From positions 54,436,972 through 54,467,479 of the forward strand of contig NC_057718.1 in NCBI RefSeq assembly GCF_004010195.1: DNA of 30,508 nt. The letters are read 5' to 3'. Both the position numbers and the translations under genes were made by a program. Below the pieces are notes generated by a model. That model was not told the origin of the DNA, did not search any database, and saw only the letters and a program-made list of their open reading frames with translations. Positions 1 to 30,508 of the stretch are shown here, piece after piece; the first letter of the stretch is position 1, and each line of letters starts with the position of its first letter. This stretch comes from Chiloscyllium plagiosum. Its lineage: Eukaryota.

Positions 1-12
1 AAGCTTGCATAC

Positions 13-146
13 CAAAATATTTCTGATGAATCCAAGTGGAGTTTGCTCTACGACAGAAAAGAATCTGCTCCACAACTGAAGGAAGCCTCTTCCAGTTTGT
101 AAATTCAAGTGTAAAGTTAAGCATGTTATCACTGGCAGTATTTAAC
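13..146 (-). CDS. asb3: Internal coding exon of ankyrin repeat and SOCS box protein 3 (exon preceding the SOCS-box exon)
   Basis: Minus strand reads tttgtgtttgttctacag|G TTA AAT ACT...TAT TTT G|gtatgc. Translation is (W)LNTASDNMLNFTLEFTNWKRLPSVVEQILFCRRANSTWIHQKYF, matching the recalled vertebrate ASB3 segment IFTLEFTNWKTL...AWILQQHI. Length 134 bp = 1+44x3+1, phase-compatible with the exon at 16767-17018. Confidence 0.93.
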
Positions 147-8399: not shown

Positions 8400-10880
8400 T
8401 TCCCGATCAATGTCCTCCGGCTCCACACATAGATTGTCCCCTTGGTCCCTAAAGTCTTATTCCTTCCCTGGTTATCCTCATCCCCTTGATAAACTTATAG
8501 AATATTTTGGAATTCTCTCTAATCCTATCCATTTTTTTTTCATGTCCCCCTTTGCTCTCCTACATGCTTTATTTAGATCCTTCCCTGCACTTTCTACACT
8601 CCTCTATGGCTTCTACTGATTTGCTCACTTTGTACCTTTTAAAGCCCTTTCTTTTACTTTTTATCCAATCCTGAATATTCTTGGACATCCATGGACTTGT
8701 TGCTCTTACATTTCACTCAAAAGGAAACATGTTGGGCCTGTATTCTGGCCCATTCCATTTTGAATGCCTGCACTGTTCTGCTGTAGATTTACAGAGAAGC
8801 AGCTGTTCCTAGTCTATTTAGACCAGATACTGCCTTATTTTAATAAAATTTACCTTCCTCCAATCACAACTCTTTTTTTGAGACTTTTTTTTTCCTTTTT
8901 GATAACAAACTTAAAATGTATGGTGTGGTCAGTACTGTCATTAAAATGCTGTCTCACAGCCACTTCAAACAACTGTCTGGCTCCGTTCCCCAAAATTAGG
9001 TCCAGCACTGCAATGTCCTCTGTTGAATATTCCACATGTTTACAAAAAAACCTTCTAAATACGCTTCAAGAAATCTGCACCCTCTAAACACTTTACAAGT
9101 GTCCCAAATCATACTGGGGAAGTTGAAATCCCCCAAATTATTACCCTACTATTGTTTTTAACACATCTTTGTGAATTGTCTATATATCTGCTCCACTCTT
9201 GCCTGCCAACTGGGAGTCTATAACATTCTCCCAGCAATGTGATTGTTCCCTTTTTATTTCTCAGTTTTACCTACGAAACCTCATTTTTGGACTCTTCCAA
9301 GATATCATCTCTCCTTACTGCAGTAACTGACTCCTTAAATAATAATGTGAAACCATCTCCGCTTTTACATTCCTGCCTTCTGCTACCTTAAGATCCCATT
9401 CCCCAAAATGTTGAGTTGTCAGTCCTGTCCCATCCTCAGCCACATCTGTGATGGCAATTACATGGCAATTTCACATCAATCCACACCCTTAACTTAACTG
9501 ATTTACCTACAACACTGCTAATATTAAAGTAGAAGTCATCAAACTTCGCCTCACTCCATAGAAACTCATCATGGTTGAACTCCCTTTATGAAAGTATGCT
9601 GTATCCCTCATGTAGTAACACTGTCTCCTCCTCTTGCCAAACTAGTTTAAGTTCCTTCCAGAAGCCTAAGCAAAACTATCTGCAAAGAGTTGGTCCCATT
9701 CTGGTTCAGATGAAGATCAGCCCACTTGTACAGGTCCCATCTTTTCTAGAAATGGTTCCAGAAATCCAACAGTCCAAAGCCTCCCTCCTGCACCAACTCT
9801 TGAGCCACACATTCATCTGCCCTATTCTCCCATGTCCATACTCACTAGCTCATGTCAACGGGAGTAATTCAGAGGTTACAAACTTTGAGGTGCTGCTATG
9901 TTACCTACTGCGTAACACCCTCATTTCTTGATGCAAGACCTCATCCCACAATCAAAGTATATTGTTGGTACCAATGCATACCACTGCCTCTGCCTTATTA
10001 CTCTCCCCCATTAGGATGCCGTGCAGCTTTTAGATTACTTAGTGTGGAAACAGGCCCTTCGGCCCAACAAGTCCACACCGCCCCGCCGAAGCGCAACCCA
10101 CCCATACCCCTACATTTACCCCTTACCTAACACTACGGGCAATTTAGCATGGCCAATTCACCTGACCTGCACATCTTTAGACTGTGGGAGGAAACCGGAG
10201 AACCCGGAGGAAACCCACGCAGACACGGGGAGAAAGTGCAAACTCCACACAGTCAGTCGCCTGAGGCGGGAATTGAACCCGGATCTCAGGCACTGCGAGG
10301 CAGCAGTGCTAACCACTGTGCCACCGTGCCGTCCACGGTGCTCAGTAACATTCCTGATCCTGGCACTAGGAAGGCAATACACCATCCTAGAGTCGTATCA
10401 GCAGCTGCAGAAATGCTTGTCTTTTCCCCTAACCACTGAATCTCCCATCACTATCATGCCTGCTTTCTTCTTCCTCCTGTTCTGTATTGTCAGGCTGCTT
10501 GTGGTGCCAGAAGCTTAGCACTATCTGCAATCCCTTGAGGAACTAACACCCTCATCAGCTTCCAAAATGGAAAACCAATTTGTGACAGGACCCCAGAGGT
10601 TCCTGCACAACCTGCCTGATTCTCTTTGACAGCCTTGTGGTCACCCATTCCCTTCTTTCTTCCAATCACTTGAACTGTGTTGTGACCACCTCTGTAAACA
10701 TGCTATCCATATAACTTTCAACCTCACAATGTGTCACAGTGTCTCCAGGGACAGTTCAAGTTCTAAATCATGGAGCTTAGCTTTCTGCCATTGAGATCAA
10801 ATCATAGTCACAAGGTCATCTACGATGTCAGTAGGGTCCATAACTTTCTAAATATAACAGGTTGTACATTCCAGTAGGCT
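8400..10880 (-). mobile_element. Old CR1 LINE 5' portion (ORF1 plus endonuclease domain), interrupted by a SINE
   Basis: Minus-strand remnants AVLDLILGNGA...QHFNDSTDHTIHFKFV (8850-9035) and GDFNFP (~9116-9134). The ORF1 region 9640-9990 is similar to 28150-28500. Confidence 0.78.
10030..10333 (-). mobile_element. tRNA-derived V-SINE (HE1-like shark SINE), near full length
   Basis: Pol III A box TGGCACAGTGG (10323-10313) and B box GGTTCAATTCC (10279-10269). V-domain GTGGAGTTTGCAC..TCTCCCCGTGTCTGCGTGGGTTTCCTCCGGG..CTCCGGTTTCCTCCCACA. CR1-like 3' tail (GGGCCGAAGGGCCTGTTTCC). Confidence 0.93.
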
Positions 10881-15765: not shown

Positions 15766-16766
15766 TCTGAAAACACCCTTTCGCTCTAATTTGCCTGCAA
15801 CCTGACTTTCCCCACTCTATGCACTAACAGCTAATCAAACAGCACCTACAATAATTGTCAGGTAATTTGCTTTTAAAAAGTGTGGCAATCCTTGACTTTT
15901 AGATCAGCCCTTCTCCATTTCAGTCCACAATCAAAAATATCAAAAAAAAGATACAGTCTTTATAACACTGCATAAAGTCATGGTCAAATCTCAGCCTGGA
16001 TTATAAACCTGCTCTGACACTGTTAAGAGGACTGTCTGATGAGAGTGAGCAATTTATACACCTGGATTTTCCTTTTACACACATTGCACTGACAATCTCA
16101 GAAATATCAAACTGCAGATTTGAGTTTTGATTCTTAATTGCATATTTTCCTTCTGTTATTTTCTTCTCATTGTTTTTATGCAATGTAACTGACACCAAAA
16201 ATTACCCAAAATAAGGAAATGTAACAGGTAAACCATTACTGAGACATGTATTTCAGGGTTATAACAGAAAAAGTGAGTTTTTAAATTAAGTTACCCATTC
16301 CAATGAAACAAGAGTAAAGATCAGATATTGGATTGTGAATGATGCTTAAATTTATATAAACAAAAATCTAACTATAACATGAGAAATATACTTTGTTACT
16401 GACCTGCAAAGTTACACTTCTGCTTGATCTAATGTTACCATGCATACTAAATGGTTAATACCATAATCTTAAGTTGACCACTACAAATCAACCAGACACT
16501 CCTGTATATATAGGTTTTAATCAATGCCTTTGGAATACCAGCCTCTTGTCTACAGTTAGCCTTGGCTATGTTATCCTTTACCAAATGAAGCTTATAAATA
16601 ATATAACATTATATTTAACTAAGAGCTTGAGGATACAAACAAGTGATCCTGAATGATAATATGTTGACTTGCACATCTATTTTCTGTATTATTTTAACAT
16701 TAAAGAAGTAATTTACTGTTTATTTTAAAATTAACAAGCAGATGCATCTCTGAATGTGTTACTTAC

Positions 16767-17018
16767 CACGCTTCACTAAGCAAATCAACAGGATTCAATC
16801 CAGCTAGTAATAGGTGAGGCAACCACTGCTTGTACTGATGTCCTGATAATAATCCATATTTTACAATATCAGCCAAATGAGTGCCTGATGGTAATGTATA
16901 ACCGTGTGCCAGAAGAAACTGCAGCAGATGGAAGCACTGATATTGCAGGCAATAACAATAATGAAGACCTGTTACAACAGCTCCAGCTTTAAGAAGGATG
17001 TAAACAAGTGCAAAAAAC
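16767..17018 (-). CDS. asb3: Internal coding exon of ankyrin repeat and SOCS box protein 3
   Basis: Acceptor tttattttattctctag|G and donor TG|gtaagt, 252 bp. Encodes FFALVYILLKAGAVVTGLHYCYCLQYQCFHLLQFLLAHGY...QYKQWLPHLLLAGLNPVDLLSEAW, matching the recalled ASB3 segment ILLKYGA...LHLAYCLKYE...[23 protein letters not shown]. Confidence 0.94.
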
Positions 17019-17599
17019 CTAGAGAATAAAATAAATGGAAAAATTAATCTAGCTTCTTGAATCATATGAACAACATTTTTTTTTCCCAGGACTCCAACTA
17101 TCTTCATAATTTGTCAGTTAAGCTATTCCCCAAGATTGGTTAACAATGAATAAATAAATCTACATGCAGTTAATCATTCTACATATGCACATCAAGCTGA
17201 GAAAAGTCACAACTGGCCTGTTTTGCCAGATGCTATGATAAAGCCAATGGCATCTGTCTCAAACATATGTCGAAGAAAGCAAATTTTAATTTTGGCTCTG
17301 TAACAATAAAGAGAAAACCCTGCAGTGTAAATTGTTCAATAGCATTATCAATATATCAAAAATATTAACTTTGACAACACAGACCTTTAACTTAAATGAA
17401 GAACATATTACAACAGACTGCTAATTAATCAATGAAAAATAAGATAATTGAAAGGTGTATTTCCCTCATAATAAGTGTTAAATGCTGATATTACTAATTT
17501 GGAAATAAATGTTCTGTTTCCTTTGAATAAATACCTTAAAGAAAAAAAGTGGTCAAGAGAGTAACCAGGAATCACAAGGCAAAGTGGTATATTGTACAA

Positions 17600-25160: not shown

Positions 25161-28100
25161 TATAGTCATAGAGTCATAGAGATGTACAGCATCTTCTGTC
25201 CAACCCGTCCATGCCAACCAGATATCCCAACCCAATCTAGTCCCACCTGACAGCACCCGGCCCATATCCCTTCAAACCCTTCCTATTCATATACCCATTA
25301 AATGCCTTTAAATGTTGCAATTGTACCAGCCTCCACCAAATCCTCTGGCAGCTCATTCCATACACGTACCACTCTGTGTGTGAAAAGGTTGCCCCTTGGT
25401 CTCTTCTATATCTTTCCCCTCTCACCCTAAACCTATGCCCTCTATTTCTGGACTCCCTGACCCCAGGGAAAAGACTTTGCTTATTTATCCTATCCACGCC
25501 CCTCATAATTTTGTAAACCTCTATAAGGTCACCCCTCAGTCTCCGACACTCCAGGGAAAACAGCCCCAGTCTGTTCAGCCTCTCCCTGTAGCTCAGATCT
25601 TCCAACCCTGGCAACATCCTTGTAAATCTTTTCTGAACCCTTTCAAGTTTCACAACATCTTTCCGATAGGAAGGAGACCAGAATCGCAGGCAATATTCCA
25701 ACAGTGGCCGAACCAATGTCCTGTACAGCCGCAACATGACCTCCCAACTCCTGTACTCAATACTCTGACAAATAAAGTAAAGCATACCAAACACCGCCTT
25801 CGCTATCCTATTTACCTGCGACTCCACTTTCAAGGAGCTATGAAACTGCACTTCAAGGTTTCTTTGTTCAGCAACATTCCCTAGGACATTACCATTAAGT
25901 GTACAAGTCCTGCTAAGATTTGCTTTCCCAAAATGCAGCACCTCGCATTTATCTGAATTAAACTCCATCTGCCACTTCTCAGCCCATTGGCCCATCTGGT
26001 CCAGATCCTGTTGTAGTCTGAGGTAACCCTCTACGCTCTCCACTACACCTCCAATTATGGTGTCATCTGCAAACTTACTAACTGTACCTGTTATGCTCAC
26101 ATCCAAATCATTTATGTAAATAACAAAAAGTAGAAGCCCAGCACTGATCCTTGTGGCACTCCACTGGTCACAGGCCTCCAGTCTGAAAAACAACCCTCCA
26201 CCACCACCCTCTGTCTTCTACCTTTGAGCCAATTCTGTATCCAAATGGCTAGTTCTCCCTGTATTCCATGAGATCTAACCTTGCTAATCAGTCTCCCCTG
26301 GGGAACTTTGTCGAACGCCTTACTGAAGTCCATATAGATCACATCTACTGCTCTGCCCTCATCAATCTTCTTTGTTACTTCTTCCAAAAATTCAATCAAG
26401 TTTGTGAGACATGATTTCCCACACACTAAGCCATGTTAACTATCCTGAATCAGTCCTTGCCTTTCCAAATACATGTACATCCTGTCCCTCAGGATTCCCT
26501 CCAACAACTTGCCCACCACCGAGGTCAGGCTCACTGGTCTATAGTTCCCTGGCTTGTCCTTACCACCCTTCTTAATCAGTGGCACCACGTTTGCCAACCT
26601 CCAGTCTTCCAGCACCTCACCTGTGACTATCGATGATACAAATATCTCAGCAAGAGGCCCAGCAATCACTTCTCTAGCTTCCCACAGAGTTCTCAGGTAT
26701 ACCTGATCAGGTCCTGGGGATTTATCCACCTTTAACCGTTTCAAGACATCCAGCACTTCCTCCTCTGTGATCTGGACATTTTGCAAACTGTCACTATCTA
26801 TTTCCCTACAGTCTATATCTTCCATATCCTTTTCCACAGTAAATGCTGATCAAAATATTCATTTAGTATCTAACCCAGTTTCTGTGGCTCCACACAAAGG
26901 TGGCTCCCCTTGCTGATCTTTGAGAGGCCCTATTCTGTCCCTAGTTACCCTTTTGTCCTTAATATATTTGTAAAGCCCCTTTGGATTCTCCTTAATTCTA
27001 TTTGCCAAAGCTATCTCATGTCCCCGTTTTGCCCTCCTGATTTCCCTCTTAAGTATACTCCTACTTTCTTTATACTCTAAGGATTCACTCAATCCATCCT
27101 ATCGATACCTGACATATGTTTCCTTCTTTTTCTTAACCAAACCCTCACCTCACTTTCTCCTCAATTTCTTTAGTCATCCAGCATTCCCTATAGCTACCAG
27201 CCTTCCCTTTCACCCTGACAGGAATACACTTTCTCTGTTATCTCATTTCTGAAGGCTTTCCATTTTCCAGCCGTCCCTTTACCTGCGAACATTTGCCTCC
27301 AATCAGCTTTGAAAGTTTTTGCCTAATACCATCAAAGTTGGCCTTTCTCCAATTTAGAACTTCAACTTTTAGATCTGGTCTATCCTTTTCCATCACTATT
27401 TTAAAATGAATAGAATTATGGTCGCTGGCCCCAAAGTGCTCCCCCACTGACACCTCAGTCACCAGCCCGTCCTTATTTCCCAAGAATAGGTCAAGTTTTG
27501 CACCTTCTCTAGTAGGTACATCCACATACTGAATCAGAAAATTGTCTTGTCCACACTTAAGAAATTCCTCTCCATCTTAACCATTAACACTATGGCAGTC
27601 CCAGTCGATGTTTGGAAAGTTAAAATCCCCTATCATAACCACCCTCTTATTCTTACAGATAGCTGAGATCTCCTTACAAGTTTGTTTCTCAATTTCCCTC
27701 TGACTATTGGGGGGTCTATAATACAATCCCAATAAGGTGATCATCCCTTTCTTATTTCTCAGTTTCACCCAAATAACTTTCCCTGGATGTATTTTCAGGA
27801 ATATCCTCCCTTAGCACAGCTGTAATGCTATCCCTTATAAAAAATGCCAGTCCCCCTCCTATTTTGCCTCCCTTTCTATCCTTCCTGGAACGTTCAGCTG
27901 CCAGTCCTGCCCATCCCGGAGCCATGTTTCTGTAATTGCTATGATATCCCAGTGCCATGTTCCTAACCATGCCCTACGTTCATCTGCCTTCCCTGTTAGG
28001 CCTCTTGCATTGAAATACATGCAGTTTAATTTATTAGTCCTACCGTGTCCCTGCCTGCCCTGACTGTTTGACTCACTTCTGTTCTCAGCTGTACCCGTCT

Positions 28101-28580
28101 CAGATCAATCTCTTTCCACACTATCTCCCTGGGTCCCACCCCCCCACCTTACTAGTTTAAATCCTCCCAAGCAGTTCTAGCAAATCTCCCTGCCAGTATA
28201 TTAGTCCCCTTCCAATTTGGGTGCAATCTGTCCTACTTGTACAGGTCACTTCTATCCCAAAGGAGATTCCAATCATCCAAAAATGTGAATCCTTCTCCCA
28301 TACACCAGCTCCTCAGCCATGCATTCATCTGCTCTATCCTCCTATTCCTGCCCTCACTAACTCGTAGCACTGGGAGTAATCCAGATATTACTACCTTTGA
28401 GGACCTCCTTTTTAAAATTTCTACCTAACTCTCTGTAATCTCCCTTCAGAGTCTCAACCTTTTCCCTTCCAATGTCGTTGGTTCCAATGTGGACAATGAC
28501 CTCCTGCTGACCCCTCTCCCCCATGAGAACATTCTGCCCCCTCTCTGAGACACCAGGGAAACAACACATCATTAAATTGT
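25161..28580 (-). mobile_element. Long CR1 LINE (~3.4 kb): 3' half of ORF1 (SGNH esterase-like) plus frameshifted ORF2 (AP endonuclease, RT) plus 3' tail
   Basis: ORF1 motif VIVHIGTNDIG. EN motifs LLGLYYRPP, GDFNFPNIDW, GEHFGASDH. RT motifs GNYRPVSLTS, YMDFSKAFDKV, SGVPQGSVLG, KFADD. Tail (ctctatga)n. Several frameshifts. Confidence 0.96.
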
Positions 28581-29588
28581 TTAGCTGTGAGACACAACTT
28601 ACTTTTATGAAAACCATTTTGAAAAGGTATCTGTGGAAAAGAGCAAGGTGATAAAAATGTTTTGTATATGTTTAACTAATAACCATCAATCTGAATTAAT
28701 GCGGAATTAACATTGATCTGTTAAGTCATGAAAATATGAAGTCAACTGAAGCATTGATGAGTTTTGGATTTCAATGATACATGTGAATTTTAATTTAAGA
28801 TTGGTAGTTTTAATATTGTTTTCATATTTAATAGTGTTAATTCAAATTTGGGACTTTTGAGGTCATTCCAGTTTATATTGCGCTTGACGATATCAAAAAT
28901 CTTGGTTTGGAAATCTCCTTAAATAAGCCAAAAGTTTGGAAAGATGCAAGTTAAATTTGAAGTTCCAAATTGATTGATGTGTTTTAAGAAATTAACCAGT
29001 TTCACAGTGGATTCTTTGCTTTTACTGTTTAAAAAAAACCCAACAATCCCAGATCACTTGACATGCAGAAAGTAACTAGGTCAGCAGGCATTCAACCTCA
29101 CAGCGAATTCTACTATTTGGGTTGCCTTTCAAAGATGTGGCTTGACTTTAGAAATTAAATAATCACTCTAACAAGTAGTGCATTATCAGACGTAATCAGC
29201 AAAATTAGTTAATTTTTAAAATAAAACTGTTGTTTAAGATAAAGAACAGACAATTGACACATTAATGCCTATATCAAATGCAAATATTTGATTGTCATTT
29301 TAAAATATTATAAGAATGGTGTATTGGGCTGTATGGCTTTTTCAGAGTTATAGAACATAGAACTGGACAGGACATGAACAGGCCCTTCAGTCCACGATGA
29401 AACCTCTGGTTATTAATGGGGTATGTAACATCGAGTGAGAGGTGGTAACTGTGGATTAGATAAGAGTCAGGAAAATCACAATGCCAAATGTGAATTGAAA
29501 AATATCACCTGGATACAATTCAACAAAAGGTTTTTCTTTTTGCTTTCTCTTGTTCTACCTTTGCTAAGTAAACAAGTTTAAAGGCTAC

Positions 29589-30018
29589 TGTGAGAGACGA
29601 TTTCGGTACAAATAGTTAAGATGTGCATGACCTCAGAGTCTAAGGGGAATAGAGCCGTGGGGGTAGGGTAAAACATGCTTCTCTATAATAAAGGACGAGA
29701 CATCTGCTGCTACAGAGTAGAAAAACAAGTCCTTGATTGATAAGACCACTAACTCTGACAGAGAAGAATAAGTCCTTGACTGATAAGACTACAGGGTAGA
29801 AAAACAACTCGGGAAACTGTTGCAGACTTTGTGAGAATGTGAACCTCGTGACTCGAGCTATAGAGGGGAGGGACTTGTACTCTATTTAATCAGAAACATT
29901 GTTAGCCTGGCGCGCCTTTTTCTCAGAAGGGTGCCCAACTCTGCAGACTTGCTACTAAAACTTTGTTTTCCTGAATTTGTCTAGAGCGATTATTGAGAAG
30001 CGATTTTCGTTTCTAACA
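29589..30018 (+). mobile_element. 5' LTR (430 bp) of an endogenous retrovirus
   Basis: TG...CA termini with a 10/12 terminal inverted repeat (TGTGAGAGACGA vs TCGTTTCTAACA). U3 direct repeats, TATA-like TATTTAA at 29883-29889, and polyA-like ACTAAA at 29954-29959. A PBS follows 4 nt after the end. Confidence 0.85.
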
Positions 30019-30022
30019 AACT

Positions 30023-30038
30023 TGGGGGCTCGTCCGAT
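30023..30038 (+). promoter_or_regulatory. Primer binding site complementary to the tRNA-Pro 3' end
   Basis: TGGGGGCTCGTCCG-AT versus the canonical Pro PBS TGGGGGCTCGTCCGGGAT: 14 consecutive matches, then GG missing. Confidence 0.92.
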
Positions 30039-30240
30039 CAACACTCCGGCCGCGAGGGGGGGGCTGAGGAAGGACATCAGAGAAGGTGCACCCTGCCGAG
30101 TTCGGCAGTCCCTGATTCCTTGCTTGTCGCCCCGCGCGGCTTGAGCGAGTGATATCCGGAAGGCTCAGGAGAACAAAGGAGGGGTGTGGCCGAGGCAGTG
30201 GGGACGGTTAACGATCGAGTAATTTCGGTGCACCGAACCC

Positions 30241-30247
30241 AGGTAAG
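30241..30247 (+). promoter_or_regulatory. Putative retroviral major splice donor
   Basis: AG|GTAAG in the leader between the PBS and the gag start, the usual position of the env-mRNA donor. Confidence 0.65.
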
Positions 30248-30462
30248 AACAGACTTGCGGGAACCGTCCTCCCGGAGGACCGGGGACCTGCGGAGTGCCT
30301 GTAGATTTTTCTACAGAGACGTGGGACACAGGAATCCAAAGACCGGGGGTGCCTGCAAAGGGACCTGGGCGACCACAGGACTGAAGGTCCGGGAATTGGC
30401 TAAATAGTGATAGATTGTCACGGGATAATATAGGAATCTCCGATTTTACAAAGTCCCCGGCA

Positions 30463-30508
30463 ATGGGAAATAAGGGATCCAAGGCGAATAAGGGAAAGGT
30501 AGGCTTGA
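30463..30508 (+). CDS. gag: Putative start of retroviral Gag (matrix N-terminus), truncated by the window edge
   Basis: Strong Kozak context gcaATGG. MGNKGSKANKGKVGL fits the N-myristoylation consensus MGxxxS(K) with a basic patch. Open to the window end, ~425 nt after the PBS. Confidence 0.7.
   Translation, partial: MGNKGSKANKGKVGL

Follow-up and report, generated by a model that had tools for sequence, protein, structure and literature searches.

A retroviral provirus antisense in an asb3 intron of the shark Chiloscyllium plagiosum: a probably young copy of a simple class I family, likely gamma-related

The window, the whole stretch of DNA that was analyzed, comprises 30,508 nucleotides of Chiloscyllium plagiosum (G000, C9:54436972-54467479). 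It carries two exons of asb3 on the minus strand and, at its right-hand end, the 5' part of an endogenous retrovirus (ERV) on the plus strand. The features are listed below in window coordinates, except where a contig is named.

11..145, minus strand: next asb3 exon, ASB3 residues 412-456, edges approximate
16739..17026 (C9:54453710-54453997), minus strand: asb3 exon, ASB3 residues 324-420, edges approximate
29584..29588, plus strand: left copy of the target-site duplication (TSD), GCTAC, 5 bp
29589..30018, plus strand: 5' LTR of 430 bp with TG...CA ends; 10 of 12 positions match between its terminal inverted repeats
29710..29810, plus strand: imperfect direct repeats in U3 of the 5' LTR, 31 nt at 87% and 22 nt at 91%
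29883..29889, plus strand: TATA-like TATTTAA in the 5' LTR, putative function
29954..29959, plus strand: poly(A)-signal position in the 5' LTR, ACTAAA here and AATAAA in the 3' LTR
30019..30036, plus strand: 4-nt spacer AACT, then a 14-nt tRNA-Pro primer-binding site (PBS) at 30023-30036
30037..30462, plus strand: CpG-rich leader, CpG observed/expected 0.85
30240-30247, plus strand: splice-donor motif CAG/GTAAG in the leader, putatively used for env mRNA
30463..30508, plus strand: gag start, first 15 codons (MGNKGSK...), running on into an N stretch past the window
G000:C9:54477645-54477851, minus strand: upstream asb3 exon, ASB3 residues 261-329

The exon at 16739..17026 is 92% identical to whale-shark ASB3, all 13 of its hits are ASB3 of cartilaginous fishes, and it lies downstream of the provirus in the sense of the gene. 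Because minus-strand exons map to both sides, the provirus lies antisense in an asb3 intron, as an earlier note on this DNA had proposed; the upstream exon, which that note could not see, has now been located. The antisense orientation would likely spare asb3 from the splice and poly(A) signals of the LTR. A long, broken LINE with the look, by eye, of a CR1-type endonuclease/RT occupies 25240-28424 on the minus strand, and shorter pieces occur elsewhere in the window.

The earlier note had also described a 430-bp TG..CA LTR with a terminal inverted repeat, a Pro PBS, a CpG-rich leader between CpG-depleted flanks, a splice donor and a Kozak ATG starting MGNKGSK, all of which can be read directly at the positions above. 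The CpG observed/expected ratio, 0.07-0.42 across the 30 one-kb bins that precede 30001, rises to 0.64 in the LTR and to the leader value given above. The gag ATG at 30463 has G at both -3 and +4, and the MGNKGSK start fits the MGxxxS myristoylation motif. An N-terminally extended Gag was set aside; just 26 open codons stand upstream of this ATG. The U3 direct repeats may act as an enhancer. A search of the assembly with the LTR returned 607 candidates, which are first-look matches and not a copy number. The LTR is not a chance reading, because all 40 of the candidates that were scored match it over most of its length at 96-100%. A 4-bp deletion after GTGACTC (region of window 29841-29844) occurs, among the 32 LTR sites listed, only in this 5' LTR and in that of copy L004, and is absent from the 3' LTRs of both.

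The PBS can pair with CCA and with the 11 bases at the 3' end of tRNA-Pro genes in the same genome; beyond that, pairing stops. A tRNA-Pro 3'-end pattern has 55 matches in the genome, as compared to none for a control, and ARAGORN found tRNA-Pro in two of the five loci scanned (four genes). In the other family copies read, an identical spacer and PBS stand next to the 5' LTR. Across the family, pairing extends over 14 bases, where 18 are usual, starting 4 bases from the LTR end; the polypurine tract (PPT) stands 3 bases before TG. The leader of copy L003 (1301-1727, element sense) contains a unit of ~111 bp repeated four times, and split leader matches suggest that other copies may carry an extra ~111-bp unit too.

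The rest of the element was sought in L001, the next ~10 kb to the right, which overlaps the end of the window and holds the 5' LTR at 561-990. A 3' LTR in the same orientation lies at L001 8130-8604, preceded by the final 10 bases of the PPT of the family and followed directly by the right TSD copy, GCTAC, at 8605-8609. The provirus thus spans 8,044 bases from LTR to LTR with GCTAC at both ends. The second LTR, PPT and TSD that the earlier note had expected on this side are all present; the 4-bp TSD that it had offered conditionally, CTAC, gives way to the 5-bp GCTAC. A 4-bp TSD for the family was rejected on this locus, on 7 of 9 two-LTR copies with a 5-bp TSD (the other two lack an exact one) and on 15 solo LTRs. 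These solo LTRs, each with a 5-bp TSD, belong to 32 further LTR loci, among which six LTRs run on into a PBS, four are preceded by a PPT, six have no sign of TSD, PBS or PPT and one could not be delimited; no TSD length other than 5 bp was seen among the 32. Many insertions of the family later collapsed to solo LTRs. For the asb3 provirus itself, the direct reading covers the two LTRs, the TSD, the PPT and the host position, and the genes were read in sister copies. Two direct LTRs with TG...CA ends, TSD, PBS and PPT, with gag, pro, RT, RNase H, IN and env in the family, are the marks of a retroviral provirus.

From the end of the window onward, the interior is a run of N (L001 1481-6749, 5,269 bases), and only the 15 gag codons are readable; for this reason, we infer the provirus's own genes from sister copies. 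N runs of varied position and length also interrupt most other family copies and a second ERV family, as expected of gaps at collapsed repeats. Between the gap and the PPT, L001 6750-8120 (G000:C9:54472749-54474119) is not env. It belongs to the second ERV family, whose LTR, leader and gag start lie here in inverted orientation, and Pfam gave nothing significant for two open reading frames of this 3' visible part. Taken at face value, the assembly describes a true recombinant, env-defective, in which the inverted 5' end of the second ERV sits just before the PPT; the same piece also precedes the 3' LTR of the C4 copy (L007). We consider a true recombinant very unlikely. The 1,371-base piece shows 0 differences among C9 (L001), C37 (L006 7255-8625) and C4 (L007 7406-8776), whereas identity among other members of the second family is 91-94% and the LTRs of the three loci are not the same. 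Zero differences in 1,371 bases would have a probability of 0.002 at 0.5% divergence and of 4e-9 at 1.4%. The first base of the piece after the N run is the same in L001 and L007. At C37, the piece simply flanks a solo LTR on the left, and this LTR has a TSD of its own; L007 carries this C37-type foreign TSD where the PPT should be, and L001 keeps 10 true PPT bases. Re-use of flanks is seen at other loci of the same assembly as well. Judged from these sequences, the piece is genuine at C37 and probably a mis-filled gap chimera at C9 and C4, and a real capture of the second ERV was rejected on the identity across three chromosomes, the common start base and the foreign TSD. Apparent recombinants in this assembly need long reads, given that the interiors of young proviruses are gapped and partly mis-filled.

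Two further observations concern the assembled LTRs. The separate loci L045/L015 and L046/L003 have a common LTR and right flank at 98-99%. Such shared flanks arose either when the assembly joined loci wrongly at their LTRs or by recombination between LTRs, and given them, an assembled LTR may combine sequence from different copies. The 3' LTR of the asb3 provirus contains a fold-back at L001 8408-8510, an inverted duplication with arms of ~52 bases beside the TATA-like box. As a family trait, it was rejected, since the junction occurs once in the genome; it is either a real mutation or an assembly error.

Sister copies have an LTR or leader 96-98% identical to that of the window, some with env or gag, and four of them (L005, L019, L025 and L026) served for the gene tests. 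Pfam identified Gag_p30 (4.8e-27), RVP, RVT_1 (2.4e-29), RNase_H, rve, MLVIN_C (7.5e-12) and TLV_coat, with no match for the matrix-side gag piece or the SU piece. The capsid piece matched six sequences in the PDB, all named gag or capsid. The RT scored 221-270 bits on its top ten PDB chains, MMLV RT among them, and at most 114 bits on the rest (Pr125Pol 111, Ty3 polyprotein 79, HIV 59-82). Gag ends in one CCHC zinc knuckle. In 7 of 10 loci, gag and pro share one frame across a single stop, which is TAG in all six read; one locus is frameshifted, one runs into N and one lacks a protease start. The env contains the CX6CC motif CGKFNLTNCC, with TLV_coat in L005 and L025, and an immunosuppressive-domain region was recognized in TM by eye only; a TM with this region and CX6CC, as found in L005 and L025, characterizes a gamma-type env. 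The sister copies read have frameshifts, stops, deletions or gaps; in some, env is open as far as it can be seen. The two-LTR spans are 7.4-8.1 kb including estimated gaps, and none was read end to end. The MLV-like RT, p30 capsid and single in-frame gag/pro stop of the sister copies bear out the earlier note's class I retrovirus rather than Gypsy. A Ty3/Gypsy origin was rejected on the RT scores, MMLV-type chains versus Ty3, and on the retroviral Pfam set. An MLV-like RT and gag read-through alone do not separate gamma from epsilon.

By analogy with gammaretroviruses, the viral integrase would insert the provirus, transcription would start from the 5' LTR, and tRNA-Pro would prime reverse transcription. 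Gag-Pol would be made by read-through of the TAG, and a spliced env mRNA would arise from the leader donor.

The relationships of the family were examined with env and RT. The env search found 147 proteins, and the best 120 were listed. Among those listed, most are named ERV3-1 Env-like and come from birds, squamates, amphibians and mammals. Identity among the matches listed is 73-86% for three proteins of Chiloscyllium punctatum, 52-60% for Hemitrygon, 48% for Hemiscyllium and 42% for Narcine, and about 35-40% over full length for birds. The RT search (residues 190-490, against proteins of 875-2495 residues) found 253 proteins. Among the best 120 of these, three unnamed proteins are 68-75% identical, the rattlesnake Crotalus 65% and birds (passerine and raptor ERVs) about 55-66%, and no protein of that size range is named as a fish protein. 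Sixty proteins chosen from the 120 and four shark pieces make up the 64 rows of a quick, midpoint-rooted RT tree, which places both shark families with Crotalus and the three unnamed proteins (SH-aLRT 89), inside a bird-squamate clade (99). A similarly quick and midpoint-rooted env tree of 49 rows was built from 49 picked hits, less one, with the query added; in it, the family joins C. punctatum (88), the two then join Hemitrygon (88), and Hemiscyllium falls outside.

Because these trees contain neither named reference viruses nor a true root, a gamma relation and any direction of transfer are offered conditionally. One alternative is that pol is epsilon-related and that the gamma-type env was gained by recombination. 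Many class I ERVs of anamniotes are described as epsilon-related with a gamma-type env and without accessory genes (bioRxiv 2021.11.23.469661, in part), and lineages II and III of the elephant shark as epsilon-like (PMC4422223, in part), which would fit such an origin. The RT data run the other way: the closest named RTs among those listed are from the rattlesnake and from passerines and raptors rather than from fish, and the shark RTs fall inside the bird and squamate clade of the quick tree. An epsilon-related pol is, in our judgment, unlikely. The gamma clade is said in PMC6001957 (in part) to "exclusively" infect amniotes; the argument built on this paper, that birds have no epsilon-like ERVs and that a bird-like RT is therefore gamma, was set aside, as an epsilon-related avian group is listed in PMC12287698 (in part). 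The ERV3-type env and the bird- and snake-like RT, in trees without a named epsilon reference, favor a family that would be gamma-like rather than epsilon.

The two LTRs of the asb3 provirus differ in 2 of 402 columns outside the fold-back; a third substitution at the fold-back edge and a 4-bp indel give a divergence of 0.5-0.7%. This value compares to 1.4-4.0% in eight other LTR pairs of the family. The low LTR divergence on which the earlier note's recent provirus depended is thus borne out, and "recent" has to be qualified. At a measured shark mutation rate of 7e-10 per generation (PMC10587355, in part), 0.5-0.7% corresponds, by our own arithmetic, to about 3.6-5 million generations. At an assumed rate of 2.2e-10 per year (PMC4422223, in part), two changes correspond to 11 My, with an interval of 1.4-41 My.

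These dates also suit a different account, in which the insertion is fixed and old and the low LTR divergence comes from a slow shark clock, gene conversion or a collapsed assembly. Orthologous ERV groups between bamboo-shark species are described (46 of them in Chiloscyllium; bioRxiv 2021.11.23.469661, in part), and low LTR divergence can mislead (PMC4724089, in part). The insertion site bears on this account, and 4 of 22 listed sequencing runs (X15, X5, X19 and X20) were compared with window 28900-29620. In X15, another sample with the same species label, a 149-base contig aligns to 29531-29588 with one mismatch, and the match ends at the TSD. A further 86 letters past the TSD do not fit the LTR; these letters were not displayed, and their side was judged from how the other records are numbered. 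By its length, the contig would end just inside a repeat that starts near L001 8677, as expected of an empty-site contig. The contig, a single record, suggests an empty allele and so speaks against fixation. The X15 flank, however, shows 7 differences from the window in 464 sites (1.5%), well above the diversity of 0.002 given for the epaulette shark (PMC10587355, in part), so the individual may represent another lineage, which the account of an old, fixed insertion would allow. Over 681 bases of flank, X5, from organism B, shows 18 substitutions and one gap, a divergence several times that of the LTRs. X5 has no depth on the LTR start, and together these data also count against an old insertion, although its contig stops at 29580, 8 bases short of the junction. 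For X19 and X20, about 4 in 100 reads of each run were used, which was too shallow at the junction. We regard an old and fixed insertion as possible but doubtful. The suggestion in the earlier note that the provirus is possibly polymorphic gains from the one X15 contig that passes the TSD without an LTR, and is weakened by its being one record from a divergent haplotype.

The mode of spread was addressed through env. Eleven open env pieces give 55 possible pairs, of which 11 were too short; in all 44 pairs with at least 150 codons, dN/dS is below 1 (0.13-0.87), in a set whose pieces were chosen for openness, whose pairs are not independent and in which CpG decay can raise dS. These values suggest that the family likely spread in the germ line by re-infection, with particles that needed env.

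Taken together, the data make it quite probable that a provirus of 8.0 kb, flanked by a 5-bp TSD, occupies the asb3 intron in antisense orientation and belongs to a simple class I family with an ERV3-type env that is likely gamma-related, likely re-infecting and likely unfixed here. The provirus is real and relatively young, and its simple class I family is probably gamma-related. A wider scenario goes further: a gamma-like virus of ERV3 type, related to those of birds and reptiles, would have infected carpet sharks by means of its env until recently, with insertions still segregating, and would have passed between sharks and stingrays. The last element comes from the family env, which is closer to that of Hemitrygon than to that of Hemiscyllium. 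We hold this scenario to be speculative and rather improbable. If true, it would mean a still-invading retrovirus in cartilaginous fish that short-read assemblies have hidden by collapsing its interior into gaps, and the sharing of an env by stingrays and a carpet shark would indicate that the virus moved among elasmobranchs. As a well-marked young copy, the asb3 provirus is usable as a marker for shark population history.

Among known systems, the family resembles MLV in its tRNA-Pro PBS, MG-x-x-x-S Gag, p30-type capsid, one zinc knuckle, TAG between gag and pro, MLVIN_C and TLV_coat env. It differs in its TSD of 5 bp, where that of MLV is 4 bp, in a PBS of 14 nt after a 4-nt spacer and in an RT that resembles bird and snake ERVs more than MLV. 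Elements of this kind have been described before in bamboo sharks, and the asb3 provirus adds a member: ERVs with a gamma-type env are described from six cartilaginous fish, with ERV-GA.a-Cpu and ERV-GA.a-Ara named from bamboo sharks and a skate (bioRxiv 2021.11.23.469661, in part). The family shares with these lineages a simple gag-pol-env organization, CX6CC in env and a host among sharks or rays, which is a likeness of description; its env is nearest the three C. punctatum proteins cited above. The "little-described lineage" of the earlier note is thereby less undescribed than had been supposed. The part of the preprint consulted gives no insertion polymorphism of shark copies, no TSD length and no test of selection on env.

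The env matches, mostly named ERV3-1, recall ERV3-1 (HERV-R)/HERVERI and HERVIPADP, supergroups of human class I ERVs with avian relatives (PMC4724089, in part). HERVIPADP is described there as similar to an avian gammaretrovirus, and the RT of the shark family is likewise nearest bird and snake ERVs. The likeness to the two supergroups is one of env names, and the Pol of HERV-IP, HERV-I and HERV-3 is absent from the RT matches listed. A lemon-shark ERV is described as close to a human ERV (PMC4422223, in part). A literature search that covered few subscription journals found no paper on HERV-I in sharks. We take the lemon-shark element to be HERV-I-like. The CmiERVs of the elephant shark (PMC4422223, in part) are likewise chondrichthyan ERVs with two LTRs; unlike the asb3 provirus, they are epsilon- or SnRV-like, with an LTR divergence of 2.4-3.3%. 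The genus Epsilonretrovirus, as far as the sources consulted describe it, has accessory genes in a complex genome and an env that is not of gamma type, in contrast to the short spans and gamma-type env found here. ERVi (PMC10435555, in part) resemble the asb3 provirus as recent, possibly polymorphic insertions, but an ERVi must have an identical LTR pair together with intact genes, and the two LTRs of the provirus differ (2-3 substitutions, the indel and the fold-back). ERVi are given for 0 of 13 cartilaginous fishes in that paper. If the polymorphism and recent re-infection hold, the family would contrast with this count and with the confinement of the gamma clade to amniotes quoted above from PMC6001957.

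Further observations concern the second ERV family and nested insertions. At L006 (G000:C37:29557000-29566900), the second family is again class I, with an LTR of ~720 bp and a different env; its RT is 67-78% identical to that of the first family in the best pieces, and it has 2,704 first-look candidates. A solo LTR of the first family, with TSD CGTAT, lies inside the 5' LTR of the second at this locus. Copy L026 (G000:C37:25831300-25841200) is deleted and rearranged, having lost part of gag and most of env, and contains a third, more divergent LTR.
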